This document shows, piece by piece, positions 36,001 through 42,000 of a stretch of DNA of 64,000 nt. The first letter of the stretch is position 1, and each line of letters begins with the position of its first letter. The DNA comes from an uncultured Verrucomicrobiae bacterium (GTDB lineage: Bacteria; Verrucomicrobiota; Verrucomicrobiia; Limisphaerales; Palsa-1400), in the NCBI GenBank assembly GCA_963702845.1, contig OY969763.1, positions 2,720,001 through 2,784,000 of the forward strand, in the 5' to 3' direction. The position numbers are program-made.

Positions 36001-39000
36001 TCCTGCCGGGCGTTGATGTCGCGGAGATTGCCTTTTTTATCGATCAGCCACATGGCAGGGATGCTCTCGATACCGAACCGGGTCGAAATTTCGTTCTGCC
36101 ATTGTTTGCCGTCGAAGTACTGCGGCCAATCCATTTTTTTGTCAGCCACGTAGTTCGTCAGCTTGGATTTGTCTTTGTCGAGACTGATGCCGACAATTTC
36201 GAAACCTTTGGGATGCAGTTCAGCATAAGCTTCCTTCACGTGCGGAATTTCAGCGACGCACGGTCCGCACCACGTGGCCCAGAAATCGATCAGCACGACT
36301 TTGCCTTTCATGTTCGAAACATCAACATCGCGGCCATCGACGGCTTTGAACTTGATGTCGACGGGTTTGCCGACGCGATCCATTTTTTCCAACGATTCTT
36401 TCGCAGATCCTTTCGCGGCTTCGGGCGCTACGGAACTGTTGGCCACTTCGGCAAGCAATTGTTTGGCCTTGTCTGGCTCACTTAATCTGGCGAGTTCGAC
36501 GAGCAATTTATACGGTTCACCACTTTTTGGAAATTCCTTCATTACTTCGTGAACCCCATTTTCGAGTTCAGTGTTGAATGCGGTCGTGCCGGCCTCGCCC
36601 TTTTTCTGTGCAGTGCGTACGATTTCGGAGATGCGGACTGTCACACGTTCATCTTCGGATGCGTTAGGGTCGGTGAGTTGAGATTTTTCCAATTTCTCCA
36701 ATCGCGGAAGAGCATTGGTTGCTCCCATGCGTTCGGCCATATTCAACGCGCGCATTTCGAAAAACTTGGCCTGGCTGGCGCGCTTGTCCTGCGGGTATTT
36801 GGTATAGAAATCGTGCGCGAGGTCAGCGGCTTTGAGAAATGCCGGCGCGGCAAAAGCTTTTTGTTCAGCCTCAGTCGGTTGCTTAGTTTGCCATTCCTTC
36901 GGAGGTGTTGGGCGCATGGCTGCCTGCACATCGGCCCAGGCCTTGTCGGCTGCGGGGTCAGCGGCGGGCGCGTCGGCGAATAGATTTACTGTCAGCAAAA
37001 GCATCAGTGCCAAAACCCATCGGCTCAATCGATTCATTGTCATATTGTAAGGGTGTACTGGTTAGGAAAGATGTTCAAAGTTTATTCGCCATGCTAACCG
37101 CCTGCAACGATCTTCACGATTTCCAGCTTATCGCCAGCGCGAAGTTCGCGTTGCGAAAACTGCGACGGCGCAATCGCTTCGCCGTTGTGTTCGACGACTA
37201 CACTGCGCGGGAGCAGGCCTTGAGTGACAAGGAATTGTTCGAGCGTGCATGGAAGTGATGTTGGCACTTCCAATCCGTTTGCGATGACGATGTTGTCGCT
37301 CATGCGGTGAGTGCGGCGTCCCAATCTTTCCAAACCGGTTCGTAACCGAGTCGCTGCAACAATGCGGCCATTTCGGCTGCGGAACGTTCGTCGGCGATCT
37401 CGAATTGACCGGTCGCAGGCGTTGCACCCTGCCCGGCCCATTCGCTGGAACCTGCTTCGACGATTCGGCCGCGCACGGTTTGGTGAATGTTTTCTTTGCC
37501 AGCGCCGGTGTATCCGCCGGGTTCGGTGTGACTGCCGGCGCTAATCATGGTGATGCCGAGCGGGATCAGGCCGTCGCGAAGTTTTGCAGGTTCGCGCGTC
37601 GAGAGAACGAGGCCGACGTCGGGCAAAAACAGGCGAAGCGCGCAAACAAGTTGGACGAGTTGCCGGTCGGAAATGTGGCTGAGCGGTTGAAATTCTCCGG
37701 CGCACGGGCGCAAACGAGGCAAGGAAATCGTTAGCTGCGCTTTCCAACATTTCTTCAGGAGATATTCGGCGTGGGCGGCAACACACAAGGCTTCGTAACG
37801 CCAATCGGCCAAGCCATACAATGCGCCGATGCCCAAACGTCGAAAGCCAGCGGCATAGGCGCGTTCGGGAGTTTCGACGCGCCAATCGAAGTTGCGCTTC
37901 GGGCCGGCGGTGTGCATGTCAGCGTAAATTTTTCGATCGTAGGTCTCTTGATAGACCACCAAGCCGTCGGCGCCTGCGGTGACGAGTGGCTCGTATTCGG
38001 CGGTTTCCATCGGGCCGAGTTCGAGCGAGATGCTGGGAATTTGTTCGTGTAACGCCGCGATGCAATCTTTGAGGTAATTGCCGGAAACGAATTTTGGGTG
38101 TTCGCCCGCGACTAACAGAATATTTCGAAAGCCCTGCTCTTGTATCGCGCGCGCTTCGCGGAGGACTTCTTCGACGGAAAGGGTCACACGCAAAATCGCG
38201 TTGTCGCGGGAAAATCCGCAATATTGACAATTGTTGATGCACTCGTTGGAAAGATAGAGCGGGGCGAAGAGGCGGATGACTTTGCCGAAACGTTGACGGG
38301 TCATTGCCTGCGATTTTGAACAGAGCTGTTCAAGTGATTCCTCTGCGGCGGGTGAGATCAGGGTGGCGAAATCGGAAAGGGTGCGCTGTGGCTTAGACAG
38401 AGCGGTGCGGACGTCGGCGACGCTGCAAGTTGCTGACTGTGCTTGCAGCGGTTCGATGGGCAAGGAATTGAATTGGGTGATAAAGGTCACGATGGTCTCG
38501 ACTAAAAAACTGTTCGCATAGGTTTACGTTACAAGGTTGGGGGGTTGCGTCAAACTACATCGGGTTGGCGAGCGGGCGGCAACACGGACGCACACGGACT
38601 CGCACCGACGAACACGGATTGAAGCGCGGGGCGTCAGTCCAAGCGAAAATGTTTTCATTGCGTTCATAAAGTTAGAGCCTCCTCACGTCGGCTGCTACAA
38701 ATGGGTAAAAGCGGCGCGCGCGGAGCCGGAACGTCCGGTTCGCCAACGCGCCCTACATTAATAGCCGACGGTGATTTCCAGGGGTTGATGTTTTTGTTTC
38801 GTGGCGCGCACGGCCAGCGACAGGGACCAGAAGCGGTCGGAGTGGCCGGATTCGCTGTGGTCGGCGGTGAAGCGGGTGTTGCCGCTGCTGGTGGGTTCTT
38901 TTCTAATCGCGCGGAGGTCGGCGCGGATTTCTGGAGAGCTCGGGATTTTTATGGTGCGGTCTTCGAAGGCCATGCGCACGGGATAGGCGAGCTCTTCTTT

Positions 39001-42000
39001 CATGGCCTGGGTGAAGGTGATGCCTTCAACTTTGTATTTACCGAATTTTTGTTGGGCGCGTTTGGTGAATTGACGACCGATGCCGGTTTGGTCGATGCAG
39101 CAGCGTTTGACGATGGGGAGGGCTAAGAGTTCGTAGAGGGCGGCTTCTTGTGCTTCGAAGGGTTCTTTTTCGAAAACCTGGATCGCGGCGGTGTGATAGG
39201 TGCTGCCGCGTTTGTCGAGGACCCAGATGACGGTGAGGTCTTTGTCGCGGCCGATGTCGACGCCGATGTAGAGTTCGGAGTCTTTGGAGAGGAGGGAGGG
39301 ATCGCAGGACCAGGATGAGGATTGCGAATTGGGGATTTCGGATTGCGGATTGGAAATATCAGAGGAGGCGGAATGGGAATCATGGGAAGAATGGGAATTA
39401 TGTGGGTATTCGGCGGCGGTGATTAGGTCGTAGCTGAGGAAGGCGCTAGCTTCGTCGGCGGAGATGCACATGTATTCCTGGTTGAAGGTTTCTACGTCGA
39501 TGGCGTCGCGACGTTTGAAGTCGAAGTATTCGGCTTCGTCCATTTGTTGGACGAAATGGTTTTCGGGCAGCGCACACTGAATTTTGAAGAGGCCGCCCTG
39601 GTCGAGAAATCGTTGGAGGGTGATTTTGTGGTAGCTGAATTTTTTCGGGTTGCCGTTGTGTTCGATGTCCATTTGCATCCGATGGAACAACGTGCTGGAA
39701 CCGCGTGGGGTGGAGAATATTTCGATGTCGCCGCCCCAATCGCCGCCGGGCATGGCGATGGAAATGAGTTTCTCCTGCTGTTCGTGGAGAGCCAATTCGT
39801 CGATGATGCGGCTGCCGCGTTTGCCGGCTTGAGCGTCGGGATTTGAAGATAAGGAGTGGATGCGGTTGCCGTTGGCGAAGGTGACGCAGTCTTGGGTGAC
39901 GGATTTGATTAAATTTTTTCCGAAGTTGCCGGCGGAGAGGATGCGATCCCATTTTTCGACGTCTTCGAGGAGGAGGCATGCTTGTTTGGCGTCGCGGCTG
40001 GTGGCCCATGTGTCGCGCCCGGGATTGCCGAAGGCGAGGATGAGGTAGCTGCGAAGGGTGGTGATGTCGGACCAGCCGAACTGACGGCCTTTGACGCAGA
40101 ATTTGCGCGGGGAGGTGTCGTTTATCCAAGCGGCCTGATTGGGAAGTAAATAATGGGCGGGCCGGATTTTCGCTTTGCCGATGTGTTTAGTAGCGGCCTG
40201 TGCGGCGATGGTGTCGAGGTAGTCGTAGAGTGAAGTGATTTGTGAATTGGTTTGCATAACATCTTTTGGTTTTGGTTGAAAAAAGTTGAAATGGCTGAAC
40301 TTAGGTTGAACGGCTTTCGGTGCGAGCCGGAGCCAACCATGAGTCCGGCAGGTTGAGGGACGCTTTCACCGCCTGGCGTCCGAATTCGGTTGGGCCGGCC
40401 TCGGCGTCTCCGCGAAGTTTCTCGCGCAGCAGTTTGATGCGGTCGTCGCGTTGGCGATCCAAGGAACGAGTGTGAGTGGCGCGGACGAATTTGAAAAATT
40501 CCAGAGGATCTTTCTGTAATTCTTGTTTGAGAACAATGGGATCGAAGTCGCGCATGATTTGAGCCATGTGCAGGTCGATCAAGCGGCCGTTAACGTAGTT
40601 GGCGCGGTTTTGGCCATTGGCGTCGAGATGGCGAAAGTATTGGTCGGTTTCATCCATCCTAAGTCTGAGGCACTGGAAGCGTTCACGTTCTTCCAACCAA
40701 AGTTTGTAGCCTGATTGTTTCCACATGGAGAGGTTGTTTGATGCGATGCCGGGGTGGCCTTTTTCGGTGACGGATTGGATGATGTTTTTGTACGGGACGT
40801 TGTCGTGCAGGGATTCGTTGATGAAGTCGCGGATGGCGGTGGGGAGCTCGCTGATTTTGCTGCGGTGCGGGCGGTGGCGATGTTTTGGTTTGGGCGCGGT
40901 GGCGGAAGTTGATGGCGATGGCGTGGGTTCAGCCGTCCCTTCGGGACTTATATCGTTCTTCGCTTCACCCCGGCACTCAAGTGCCGGACTAGGTTCAGTT
41001 GTGCCTTCGGCACACAAGATGGTGGCGGCGATTGTTGATTCAGTGTTTGTCGGTTCGGCGGTTGTTGTTTCGGTGTTCATATATCTACTTTTTGAGGATG
41101 AGTGTAACAACGTCACTTGGACAAAGGCTGTCCAAGTGAAAATATTTGTGCAGAAAGTTTGCGAGGGGTGGGAATGGTCCCAATTTGTTTATTAGGAGGA
41201 GGTTGCGCGTATTGTTTTGTCTGAGGGGATGGGAGAAGAGGATTTTTGAGCCTCCGATAACGGAACAAATTGTTTTGGCGCACGCTGCCGCGAGCTACGT
41301 CGGCTGCTACGAGGTTTTATTGACAGTGCTAAAATCGAGGCATACGGTGGGGCTACTGATGAAAGTCGGAAAGTATTCCGACTTTCACGTTCACTTATGA
41401 GATTAGGCGGAAAGAAGCAGTATATAATAATATAGTTCGGCTACGTGAATCCATGCAGTCTATTGACATTTATATGTATGGCTCGCTCAAGGAGCGTTTC
41501 ACGCAACGGTATCGTGATAGGCTGGGCGAGCTATTAGCGGCGCAGTTGGAGGCTGCCACCGGATTCTCAATAGACAGCAAGCGATTTTTCATCTTTGCGG
41601 TTGGTGACGACTTACAGATTCCAGAACCTGCAGTATTTATTTTGGAAGGAGACCTTATCGGCTCAGACAATTTCTTAGTCGAGGCAGAGATCACTTGGCG
41701 GGAAGGAGAAGACATGCCCATCGAGGCTCGATGGTCTCGGCTAAATGTCCGCGAATTGCGTGAGAGATATGGTGGGCTTTAGCATATTACCCGACTCGTT
41801 ACTTTGAACCCGTGGCCTAACCAGAGCGCTGCAGCGGATCCCGACTCTGAGTTGGGACTGCATTTACAATTCTTTAGTCAGTGGCCCGCCGCCGCTGAGG
41901 TTATGTGTCAGCTCTTACCTACATGACGAACGAAGAAAACAAAAAAGTCGAGCGGTGGCATCTTAGACTTGGGCGCGCGAAGTTCCTCCGCCCGGGAATT

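Follow-up and report, generated by a model that had tools for sequence, protein, structure and literature searches.

Lateral transduction proceeds in situ from the pac sites of prophages or PICIs and, in the known cases, a whole prophage or PICI is responsible. PafBC and DriD are WYL-type DNA-damage regulators that work independently of LexA. Operon I of the SaPIs, which contains terS, is LexA-regulated and fires upon helper prophage induction, as recounted in PMC3152322 (there citing Ubeda 2007); SaPIs also have an integrase, att sites and replication and capsid-remodelling genes, and use the helper's TerL. PICMIs and other minimal satellites are, by the account in PMC10803314, strongly reduced and dependent on tailed phages, with the PICMIs keeping three core excision/replication proteins at a fixed site next to fis. 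Capsid-forming PICIs are the subject of a preprint (10.1101/2022.09.08.507074), and according to one survey incomplete prophages preferentially lose their packaging genes (PMC7744054). In LexA-less Acinetobacter, recA is described as being driven by WYL activators, the regulon concerned being that of DdaA (PMC13010146).

The locus considered here keeps TerS and TerL alone. It lies in the window, the whole 64,000-nt stretch analysed from the genome (G000) of an uncultured Verrucomicrobiae bacterium, and occupies 38758-41080 on the minus strand as a compact operon in which a palindromic operator/promoter is followed by a TerS-like gene, TerL and a terminator-like hairpin. An earlier note had placed a small and large terminase pair there among housekeeping genes, and both ORFs are indeed found, flanked on one side by a thiH-like gene, on the other by a sugar kinase, and with housekeeping neighbours to about 10 kb (the thiH-like radical SAM gene, a redoxin, the FGGY kinase and a two-component system). 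In descending coordinates the features are:

41453..42252, plus strand: two small ORFs, one of 109 aa and a hydrophobic one of 115 aa, making up the rest of the variable interval
41297..41310, minus strand: one of two copies of the REP 14-mer core, interrupted by an insertion; the operator lies about 160 nt downstream
41056..41440, minus strand: promoter block of 385 nt, 92% identical to a block at C1:2131598-2131984
41114..41138, minus strand: palindromic operator CACTTGGACAGCCTTTGTCCAAGTG, 25 bp with 10-bp arms and a 5-nt spacer, an exact match (G000:C1:2761114-2761138)
41101..41109, minus strand: extended -10-like element TGTTACACT, read from the sequence, its -10 role putative
40301..41080, minus strand: TerS-like gene of Mu gp27 / DUF3486 type, 259 aa from ATG, by homology to paralogs
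40969..41014, plus strand: stretch of two hairpins whose loops read UUCG, antisense to TerS-like codons 22-37
38758..40257, minus strand: large terminase, 499 aa, by Pfam and PHROG matches and alignment of invariant columns
38702..38755, minus strand: G+C-rich hairpin followed by GCUUUU, directly 3' of the TerL stop codon, a putative terminator
38669..38698, minus strand: dispersed REP-like repeat GTAGCAGCCGACGTGAGGAGGCTCTAAC, about 60 nt beyond TerL

The GC skew of +0.25 to +0.38 is confined to the terminase unit, whose composition looks foreign for that reason. The terminator is called putative since a simple terminator scan did not pick it up; the whole 171-nt stretch containing it shows no folding advantage over shuffled sequences (z 0.2). 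Neither of the two small ORFs has a match in Pfam, PHROG, NCBIfam or PADLOC, nor are they present in the corresponding interval of the sister species G001, whose content differs. The two REP core copies form the sole direct repeat flanking the unit (spacing 2612), being instances of a generic REP-like 14-mer with 43 copies at no more than one mismatch, often as inverted pairs and in nine cases near terminase loci. The two-hairpin stretch scores 36.0 bits against Rfam Acido-Lenti-1, just below the gathering score of 37; diverged copies of a three-hairpin element occur elsewhere in the genome.

The earlier interpretation of such pairs as a packaging module in their own right is partly supported. 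It gains from the intact, self-contained operon with its own promoter, conserved motifs and variable spot, and loses from what was sought in vain: repeat and sequence searches found no element ends, target duplications or pac site at the pair, and profile searches found no integrase, replication or excision genes within about 10 kb. As with SaPI operon I, a packaging module with terS would stand under a host damage regulator, but the SaPI accompaniments are missing. The pairs share with PICMIs strong reduction and, probably, dependence on tailed phages, yet the retained set is the opposite one, packaging genes and nothing for excision or replication. As to capsid-forming PICIs and head-only modules, TerL relatives in other genera belong to blocks of the order TerS-TerL-portal-(protease)-capsid, of which the window unit keeps only the terminase genes, those for portal, protease and capsid having been lost. 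Cryptic prophage remnants resemble the pairs in being lone phage genes amid housekeeping genes, with a reduction series in the same genome; here, by contrast, the same two genes are repeatedly intact and the promoter, with its putative regulation, is conserved.

The identity of the large subunit is clear. It matches Terminase_6C (6e-22), Terminase_6N (3e-5) and PHROG large-terminase families (6e-34), and profile comparison links it to TerL nuclease domains of solved structure (5e-13) and to T4 gp17 (3.5e-8). The ATPase motifs comprise a deviant Walker A, K56-GRQFGW-S63, with Trp in place of the Walker A lysine, which we take to be the lambda-type deviant motif, together with Walker B IIDE154; an FSTPRG motif is also present, the nuclease residues are D334, D389, D474 and H472, and all catalytic columns are kept across the paralog alignment. 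The TerS-like ORF, 43 nt upstream, is more elusive. Its own product has no match in Pfam, PHROG or NCBIfam, and its assignment comes from homologous paralogs detected by tblastn (8e-30 for copy C), which match PF11985 Phage_Mu_Gp27 (1e-6 to 1e-4), with phrog_426 'terminase small subunit' matched in three of the five family-B copies tested. The predicted structure has residues 1-70 disordered, an HTH-like core at about 75-125 and long helices thereafter, and there is a weak BFVD match to a 'DUF3486 family protein' (E 0.011). Were translation to begin at the alternative GTG at 41116, the lengthened gene would reach into the operator.

How solitary are such pairs? All seven family-B and both family-A pairs of the earlier note were re-found, while its count of 14 large-terminase genes becomes 15 loci in a Terminase_6N profile search; one is interrupted by a TAG, and the other 14, at 44-74% mutual identity, contain no internal stop. 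Its statement that most of the pairs lack other phage genes is borne out by copies A, C, D and F (with an IS110 transposase near C and an IS200-type one near F), but does not apply to B, where a portal gene follows, or to E, where capsid, connector and portal genes follow and the adjoining head genes include a broken TerL; nor is the family-A pair at 6.005 Mb fully 'alone', since a collagen/Peptidase_S74 protein (tail-spike chaperone type) adjoins it. Across the genome there is one HK97-type capsid match and two portal matches, and the reported absence of tail families holds for the three tested, PF10145, PF04984 and PF04865, with no match to any. Many terminases, few head genes and none of those tail families would suit a distributed GTA-like system, its scattered terminases, two portal genes, one capsid gene and head-carrying elements together building DNA-filled, possibly tailless capsids upon DNA damage, and the shared, putatively inducible promoter heading several units would suit it as well. 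We nevertheless hold this to be quite improbable: at least two unrelated terminase families and many divergent lineages fit repeated acquisition better, the head genes by E include the broken TerL, and a search with a few Pfam families found no GTA-typical lysis, tail or regulator set.

In relatives from other genera portal, protease and capsid genes follow the terminase, as had been noted before (Phage_portal after TerL in four of 10 wider loci examined, Portal_Mu in one), and within the genome a reduction series runs from capsid, portal and TerL (E) through TerS, TerL and portal (B) and bare pairs to lone or truncated TerS. On both grounds the pairs derive from head modules by reduction, and not from a primordial 'terminase-only' element. 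Decay is ongoing, given the truncated lone TerS at C1:2131682 and the TAG-broken TerL. Selection on the genes is relaxed at dN/dS values of 0.3-0.6: the NG86 estimates, below 1 in every estimable pair, are 0.27-0.61 for TerL (11 of 21 pairs with unsaturated dS) and 0.22-0.93 for TerS (12 of 21 estimated), overlapping the 0.16-0.55 claimed previously but running higher, and the purifying selection may stem from the time the genes spent in phages.

The reduction series, the relatives' head genes, the TAG and the dN/dS of up to 0.6 all suit plain decay remnants of Mu-gp27/28-type prophages or head-only satellites, devoid of present function, in which open frames and motifs would reflect selection during phage life plus recent arrival, and the shared promoter a dispersed promoter-bearing repeat with no selected regulon. 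We regard this as a serious though rather unlikely explanation. It sits uneasily with 14 of 15 TerL frames open and every catalytic column kept at such divergence, and with the repeated survival of the same two genes, the opposite of the preferential packaging-gene loss given in the survey of incomplete prophages (PMC7744054).

The window pair is at a variable, non-syntenic spot relative to the two sister species examined, in accord with the earlier claim: the closest pair in G002 (74% DNA identity) adjoins DNA located at 1.82 Mb in G000, and the G001 thiH-FGGY interval contains 2.4 kb of DNA that is unrelated and encodes no terminase. The operator-TerS-TerL layout itself recurs in G002, at that other locus, and in a metagenome contig, and such conservation again tells against mere decay.

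The 25-bp palindrome CACTTGGACA-N5-TGTCCAAGTG has 28 sites in the genome at up to two mismatches, and the reversed control pattern has none. At the window, an A+T-rich run precedes the operator, TGTTACACT follows it by 7 nt and the TerS ATG is 20 nt further on; the pattern ACnTTGnTAnnnT comes after the palindrome at most sites, and wherever a start is assigned the ATG is 19-41 nt away. Between copies the operator region is 86-92% identical and the TerS proteins behind it share 32-36% identity, a disparity that speaks against decay. The 385-nt promoter block has its counterpart upstream of the truncated lone TerS-like gene; the homology stops sharply at 41440 and, past the block, identity between the two TerS genes falls to about 32%, so the block was exchanged between copies. 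A dispersed, seemingly non-coding repeat begins with the motif in G022 and is found upstream of ordinary metabolic genes, so the promoter cassette may spread on its own. That behaviour favours decay, as does the operator's distribution: three of five intact close family-B pairs (A, B and C) have it, and none was found upstream of copies D and F or of TerS at loci G and H.

Terminase-related units are the largest target class, with eight of the 28 sites at their head. Four head DNA-repair units (recA, an imuB-dnaE2 cassette, mfd and ligA), four WYL-WCX regulators, one a DUF3631 primase-like gene, one a small Arg-rich ORF and 10 others; 10 of the sites precede genes without a DNA-damage link. 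In G002 the operator likewise precedes recA, WYL genes, DUF3631, a TerS-TerL pair and the ORF that comes ahead of imuB. The recA palindrome, present in G000 and G002, was not found within 900 nt upstream in 20 readable genomes of other genera (21 searched), and this wiring is confined to one genus. The motif is, to our knowledge, not among known regulatory motifs; the palindrome and its shared use with DNA-repair genes are a new observation.

With recA, imuB-dnaE2, mfd, ligA and WYL regulators sharing its palindrome, the pair looks wired into a LexA-independent DNA-damage regulon. Peptidase_S24 (LexA-type) has no match in the genome, and LexA_DNA_bind matches only two small ORFs, each beside serine recombinases; with LexA, the SaPI regulator, thus discounted, a WYL-domain protein is the most likely regulator. 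One WYL-WCX gene, of HTH-WYL-WCX type, is single-copy across the order (37 of 41 genomes); in both G000 and G002 the palindrome stands 18 nt ahead of this gene's ATG. The likeness to the WYL-type regulons of PafBC, DriD and DdaA extends to the absence of a detected LexA-type peptidase and to motif sites before recA and the mutasome genes, before the regulator's own gene and before a small ORF, which could be a counterpart of damage-induced division inhibitors; the prominence of phage-derived terminase units among the targets is a difference from known WYL regulons.

Such co-regulation could also be read as host domestication of the pairs into the cell's DNA-damage or anti-phage response, whether as a decoy seizing phage procapsids, a cutter of phage concatemers or an ATP-driven nuclease/translocase for repair. 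The intact TerL enzyme motifs and a WYL paralog that carries this operator and stands first in a DndC/DndD-PbeC defence-type operon point that way. We think it improbable, however, given non-synteny in both sister species, many divergent paralogs in place of one conserved host gene, no PADLOC match for the window pair, foreign-looking composition and relaxed selection.

Our own tentative preference is for surviving, still-used, helper-dependent packaging modules that are induced by DNA damage. A two-gene operon of Mu gp27-type TerS plus TerL, the remainder of a head module that once belonged to a tailed phage or a head-only satellite, would have been kept intact and brought under the palindromic operator/promoter. 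On DNA damage, when resident phages and satellites are also induced, the switch, most likely worked by a WYL-domain regulator, would be turned on and TerS and TerL made. Since the pair comes without capsid, portal or tail genes, the terminase could act only in trans, on procapsids from an infecting or induced phage or from the genome's head-carrying elements. Packaging would start at a recognised site, probably within or close to the pair's terS, and either the pair and flanking chromosome would be moved, lateral transduction being a possible route for a non-excising terminase/pac locus to take its neighbours along, or the phage would be competed with for heads.

The promoter evidence falls short of proof, but it supplies a concrete, testable mechanism, co-induction with DNA-damage genes. 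A promoter switch common to several terminase operons and to DNA-repair genes hints that these terminases are still in use.

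The unit at 38758-41080 on the minus strand of the window consists of two ORFs in the same direction, with a small-terminase-like gene (TerS) upstream, the gene for the large subunit (TerL) downstream and a gap of 43 nt between them. Directly 3' of the TerL stop codon there is a G+C-rich hairpin and then GCUUUU, a layout that makes the two genes a compact operon of ~2.4 kb.

Features of the unit and its immediate flanks (window positions)
38758-40257, minus strand: TerL, 499 aa, with Pfam and PHROG matches
40301-41080, minus strand: TerS-like ORF, 259 aa counted from ATG, assigned by homology to paralogs
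41114-41138, minus strand: perfect palindrome CACTTGGACAGCCTTTGTCCAAGTG, 33 nt upstream of the TerS ATG
38669-38698 and 41297-41310: REP-like repeat GTAGCAGCCGACGTgAGGAGGCTCTAAc, with 43 copies genome-wide, often in inverted pairs

In profile searches TerL matches Terminase_6C (6e-22), the PHROG large-terminase families (6e-34) and Terminase_6N (3.4e-5; 24 bits with a cut-off of 22). It has both parts of a Terminase_6/T4 gp17-like enzyme: the N-terminal half is the ATPase for packaging (Walker A, Walker B, coupling motif), and the C-terminal half a nuclease of the RNase H-like kind, whose catalytic triad is acidic. When the window protein is aligned with 12 relatives at 25-74% identity, Walker B (IIDE154), the FSTPRG motif and T183/G186 are unchanged throughout the 13 sequences, and the nuclease residues D334, D389, D474, H472 and R475 are likewise unvarying. 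The profile of this alignment finds the solved TerL nuclease domains 5tge and 5m1f at 5e-13 and the T4 gp17 ATPase at 3.5e-8. Walker A is deviant, KGRQFGWS, with Trp in place of the usual Lys throughout the clade; it may be the lambda gpA-type deviant form, with Lys at the start of the motif.

The window TerS itself has no match in Pfam, PHROG or NCBIfam and its probable identity comes through its paralogs at other loci of family B, the Mu gp27/gp28-like terminases (terminase loci are lettered A to H here, A being the window pair). It matches paralog C at 8e-30 (tblastn); paralogs C, D and G match PF11985 Phage_Mu_Gp27 at 1e-6 to 1e-4, and C, D and F match phrog_426, 'terminase small subunit', at 8e-10 to 2e-7. 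The predicted structure has a 70-residue disordered head, an HTH-like core with pLDDT above 90 and then long helices; with its place directly upstream of TerL this is the pattern of a DUF3486-type, putatively oligomerising, small subunit. Foldseek comparison of the model with the PDB gave nothing at E <= 0.001, and with BFVD an unnamed protein (5.6e-5) and, weakly, a 'DUF3486 family protein' (E 0.011); the TerS alignment profile gave chance-level matches only against solved structures. Homologues elsewhere, in a word-based protein search, come to only nine further clusters, every one 'hypothetical'.

Antisense to the 5' part of the TerS gene, window 40969-41014 on the plus strand scores 36.0 bits against Rfam Acido-Lenti-1, for which the gathering score is 37; an Rfam scan of 36-45 kb gave nothing besides this sub-threshold match, which is absent from six other terminase loci. 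The stretch is part of a three-hairpin element with UUCG loops, diverged copies of which are at C1:1878054, 3949271, 5639507, 790714 and 4435199 (C1 is the contig). Candidate readings are an antisense RNA, a repeat that has inserted in frame and a signal at the level of the DNA.

The pair sits among housekeeping genes (a thiH-like radical-SAM gene, a redoxin, an FGGY kinase and a two-component system), and no other phage, integrase/recombinase or replication families were found beside it in ~10 kb (15 ORFs, 33.4-48.2 kb). PADLOC-DB defence models gave 0 families for the pair and two small neighbouring ORFs. The unit is unusual in composition, with a plus-strand GC skew of +0.25 to +0.38 across 38-41.5 kb and near zero outside. 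Ends of the unit were looked for and not found, the sole flanking direct repeat being a REP-like 14-mer core. This 14-mer (38685-98 and 41297-310) was considered as a target-site duplication or att site and rejected, as it is the core of the 43-copy repeat that often occurs as inverted pairs. Nine of the 43 copies are near terminase loci, far above the genome share of these; an IS200-type Y1 transposase is near pair F.

The earlier note had described scattered TerS-TerL pairs, and this was borne out: all nine that it named, seven of family B and both of family A, were found again in the single 6.03-Mb contig of this Verrucomicrobiales bacterium, where Terminase_6N marks 15 TerL loci, 14 of them without stops. 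The family-A small subunits match phrog_6299. What the note called satellites fits two other terminase loci that are preceded by replication modules, with a PIF1 helicase and Prim-Pol in one and AAA_25 in the other. Its statement that most of the pairs have no other phage gene beside them is true of the bare pairs A, C, D and F; at B a portal gene follows, and at locus E capsid, connector and portal genes accompany a TerL with an in-frame TAG. Lone TerS-like genes are also present, one of them truncated.

Five phage structural families were searched for genome-wide with Pfam: there is one Phage_capsid match, there are two of Phage_portal, and there are none for the three tail families. The claim that the genome has no tail family thus stands for these three, but one Peptidase_S74 tail-fibre-type domain is present. 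This domain, of the tail-spike/endosialidase chaperone kind, belongs to a protein of 520 aa that also has collagen repeats (C1:6005503-6007065; L029:9504-11066, minus strand); its gene immediately precedes the family-A terminase unit at 6.00 Mb, so this pair does have a phage-like neighbour. A gene transfer agent (GTA) has a complete head set and usually a tail set, under host control, with which it packages host DNA; these matches are far short of such a set, and it is highly improbable that the pairs are parts of a distributed GTA-like system.

Where did the pairs come from? In the family's other genera TerL is usually followed by head genes, with bare copies too: among ten wider loci Phage_portal follows TerL in four, some with protease and capsid, and Portal_Mu in one. 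In IMG/VR there are 186 relatives, none of them close (the best at 50% identity) and many on contigs of 30-57 kb; on the one examined there are genes for portal, protease, major head and tail. The pairs thus descend from packaging modules of tailed phages or head-only elements, and a reduction series is visible within the genome under study itself; their origin by reduction is, in our view, settled. In six of the ten wider loci (L102, L105, L106, L108, L110 and L111) a class-3 lipase gene (PF01764) is within a few kb of the terminase and may have been part of the ancestral element. Some relatives and one viral contig have a TerL ORF of 665-741 aa (L102:6210-8435, L104:6343-8388, L112:659-2656), with ~200-290 aa of N-terminal extension ahead of the ATPase domain; perhaps TerS is fused to TerL in these, or else the start was mis-called.

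The window pair is not in a fixed place. It was compared with two sister species of the same genus (g1), G001 and G002. Between thiH and FGGY, G001 has 2.4 kb of other, unrelated sequence (G001:C438:291-2734; L064), and the interval looks like an insertion hot spot; by eye, its content includes a DUF433-like and PIN-like pair of toxin-antitoxin type. The closest pair in G002 (TerL 71%, TerS 63% identical) adjoins DNA that in the genome under study is at 1.82 Mb, in keeping with the earlier note's report of a different place in a sister species. Within the genome, 385 nt of promoter DNA at 41056-41440 share 92% identity with the block before a lone TerS at 2.13 Mb, a gene otherwise of another lineage, from which it follows that copies recombine.

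The palindrome is flanked by an A+T-rich run before it and, after it, by TGTTACACT, from its sequence an extended -10-like element. The pattern CACTTGGACA-N5-TGTCCAAGTG, with up to two mismatches, has 28 sites in the genome as against none for a reversed control, and a start codon follows 19-41 nt downstream wherever a start is assignable. Eight of these sites precede terminase-related units (pairs A, B and C, both family-A pairs, the pair-G operon and two lone TerS), four DNA-repair units, four HTH-WYL-WCX regulators, one a DUF3631 primase-like gene and one a 68-aa Arg-rich ORF at about C1 561200 on the plus strand; the remaining ten precede various further genes or unknown ones, with thrS, ceramidase-like genes and an amidohydrolase among them.

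Candidate operator sites before repair and regulator genes (C1 contig coordinates)
4979324-48: heads recA
1186239-63: heads an unannotated ORF, then imuB-like and dnaE2-like genes
4589082-106: heads mfd
42051-75: heads the NAD-ligase gene ligA
3080967-91: heads the core WYL gene (3081010, plus strand)

In G002 the palindrome stands before recA, DUF3631, a TerS-TerL pair, two genes of the WYL type and the ORF that leads into imuB. The operator region is 86-92% identical among A, B and C, while the TerS proteins behind it share 32-36%; it is lacking at pairs D and F and at the TerS genes of G and H. Two of the targets merit a further remark. Behind one of the sites, a WYL-WCX paralog is the first gene of a defence operon of the phosphorothioation type, with DndC / DndD-PbeC (C1:119838-124621; L014; PADLOC 1e-113 and 1e-81). 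The NAD-dependent DNA ligase is read as two ORFs (contig C1:38991-41554; L013:3992-4555 and 2324-3577, minus strand), the adenylation domain and then OB/BRCT, by either a frameshift or an assembly error; many split genes had already been reported for this genome.

Which regulator would bind there? LexA was considered and rejected: Peptidase_S24, the LexA-type peptidase, has no match in the genome, and LexA_DNA_bind matches only two ORFs, of 117 and 136 aa, beside serine recombinases. Of 41 genomes from the order, 37 have a WYL-WCX gene, mostly in single copy, and in the genome under study and in G002 the palindrome is 18 nt before the ATG of the core copy. The marks of a WYL-type regulon, one conserved operator on recA, mutasome or repair genes and the regulator itself in a LexA-less genome, are found, in genus g1 only. 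Given the shared targets, the lack of S24, the sites at WYL-WCX genes and the conservation of the operator, we read the palindrome as the operator of a putative DNA-damage regulon, independent of LexA and probably under WYL control, that takes in the terminase operon. There are precedents for both halves of this: the WYL activator DdaA operates in LexA-less Acinetobacter (PMC13010146), and operon I of SaPI, which contains terS, is under LexA regulation (PMC3152322).

Outside the genus the palindrome has other company. It was found within 900 nt of recA in none of 20 genomes of other genera with readable upstream DNA, though present there in the genome under study and G002, and upstream of the core WYL gene in none of 14 loci. 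Nine of 11 motif sites examined in other genera precede the 68-aa ORF, copies of which are at L045:2758-2964 (minus strand) and in L046, L047, L048, L049, L050 and L052; this conserved ~68-aa Arg-rich product (...RRQRAQWWFxQMRRVV...) has no Pfam match. WYL regulators elsewhere control small damage-induced division inhibitors, and by analogy it may be speculated that the ORF is their counterpart. In G022, from another genus, 17 copies of the palindrome head a dispersed repeat of ~300 nt, non-coding in look (loci L066-L076), which is upstream of ordinary genes such as those for alanine dehydrogenase, an aminotransferase, lytB and a sulfatase and gives the impression of a promoter cassette with MITE-like spread. 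In the genome under study, repeat pieces recur among the long leaders of several genes, recA and ligA included, so the promoter there, too, may be a travelling cassette. No exact match was found in viral contigs. Metagenome contigs have 79 unique sites, five with a downstream match to the protein panel of the genome under study (the 68-aa ORF twice, a family-A TerS-like protein, LigA, and family-B TerS with TerL); the flanks of the rest are unrelated and that scan says little.

Do the pairs still work? In favour are the intact frames with retained catalytic residues, a conserved promoter predicted from the shared operator to be regulated, the repeated keeping of the same two genes and the conservation of the unit in the sister species. 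Such keeping runs counter to what is reported for incomplete prophages, in which packaging genes tend to be the first to go (PMC7744054). On the other side are the relaxed dN/dS of TerL (0.27-0.61 by NG86, for comparisons with unsaturated dS), the decay of some copies, the several pairs that have no operator and the possibility that the promoter cassette may spread on its own. That the pairs are inert remnants is doubtful. Cryptic prophages have broken genes and phage debris; in the window pair both genes are open, and such features are seen elsewhere in the genome, in the TAG of TerL E and the truncated lone TerS. That the genes have been domesticated by the host is quite improbable. The best explanation, tentatively held, is that the window unit is a damage-induced, helper-dependent packaging module. 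The earlier note's reading of the pairs as a selfish or domesticated module that redirects the packaging of a helper phage is upheld in part: an intact operon with a putatively regulated promoter speaks for it, but the origin by reduction and the want of ends do not.

The way in which such a module's enzyme would find its DNA and capsids we infer throughout. A bolder reading, an unlikely one, is that TerS-TerL platforms, turned on by the host's WYL-type damage switch, would as a distributed system of terminase-only hitchers package adjoining chromosome into the capsids of others. Each platform would have no excision, replication, capsid or tail genes of its own; its enzyme would cut at a pac site that is part of its terS or close to it, and headfuls of chromosome would be packed into capsids of co-resident head-only elements or of an induced or infecting phage. 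Ten or so such platforms round the genome would be comparable in effect with lateral transduction or with a gene transfer agent, and they would spread through homologous recombination of their housekeeping flanks. They would be the smallest known kind of phage-dependent mobile element. Orphan or stand-alone terminases or terminase remnants were not found among the literature matches listed, which does not show that the idea is unpublished.

Satellites (PICI, cf-PICI, P4-like, PLE, PICMI) have an integrase or excision function with att ends and their own primase, helicase or Rep; the window pair has none of these beside it and so is outside every described satellite family. It is neither a GTA nor a known defence system. 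Its logic is like that of SaPI operon I, and it mirrors the PICMIs, which keep excision and replication (PMC10803314), whereas here the packaging genes only are kept.

If active, the pairs would show how small a phage-dependent element can be, as packaging-only counterparts of the minimal satellites described so far, in which excision and replication are kept, and they would provide a high-frequency route for mobilisation of adjacent chromosomal genes in an uncultivated Verrucomicrobial lineage. Irrespective of activity, the palindrome defines a candidate LexA-independent DNA-damage regulon in Verrucomicrobiales, in which a conserved WYL-WCX regulator and a small protein that may be damage-induced are joined by directly wired genes of phage origin, and its operator is a direct experimental handle on the pairs. 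It also illustrates how a promoter cassette may spread within one genus and in doing so re-wire repair and mobile-element genes alike.
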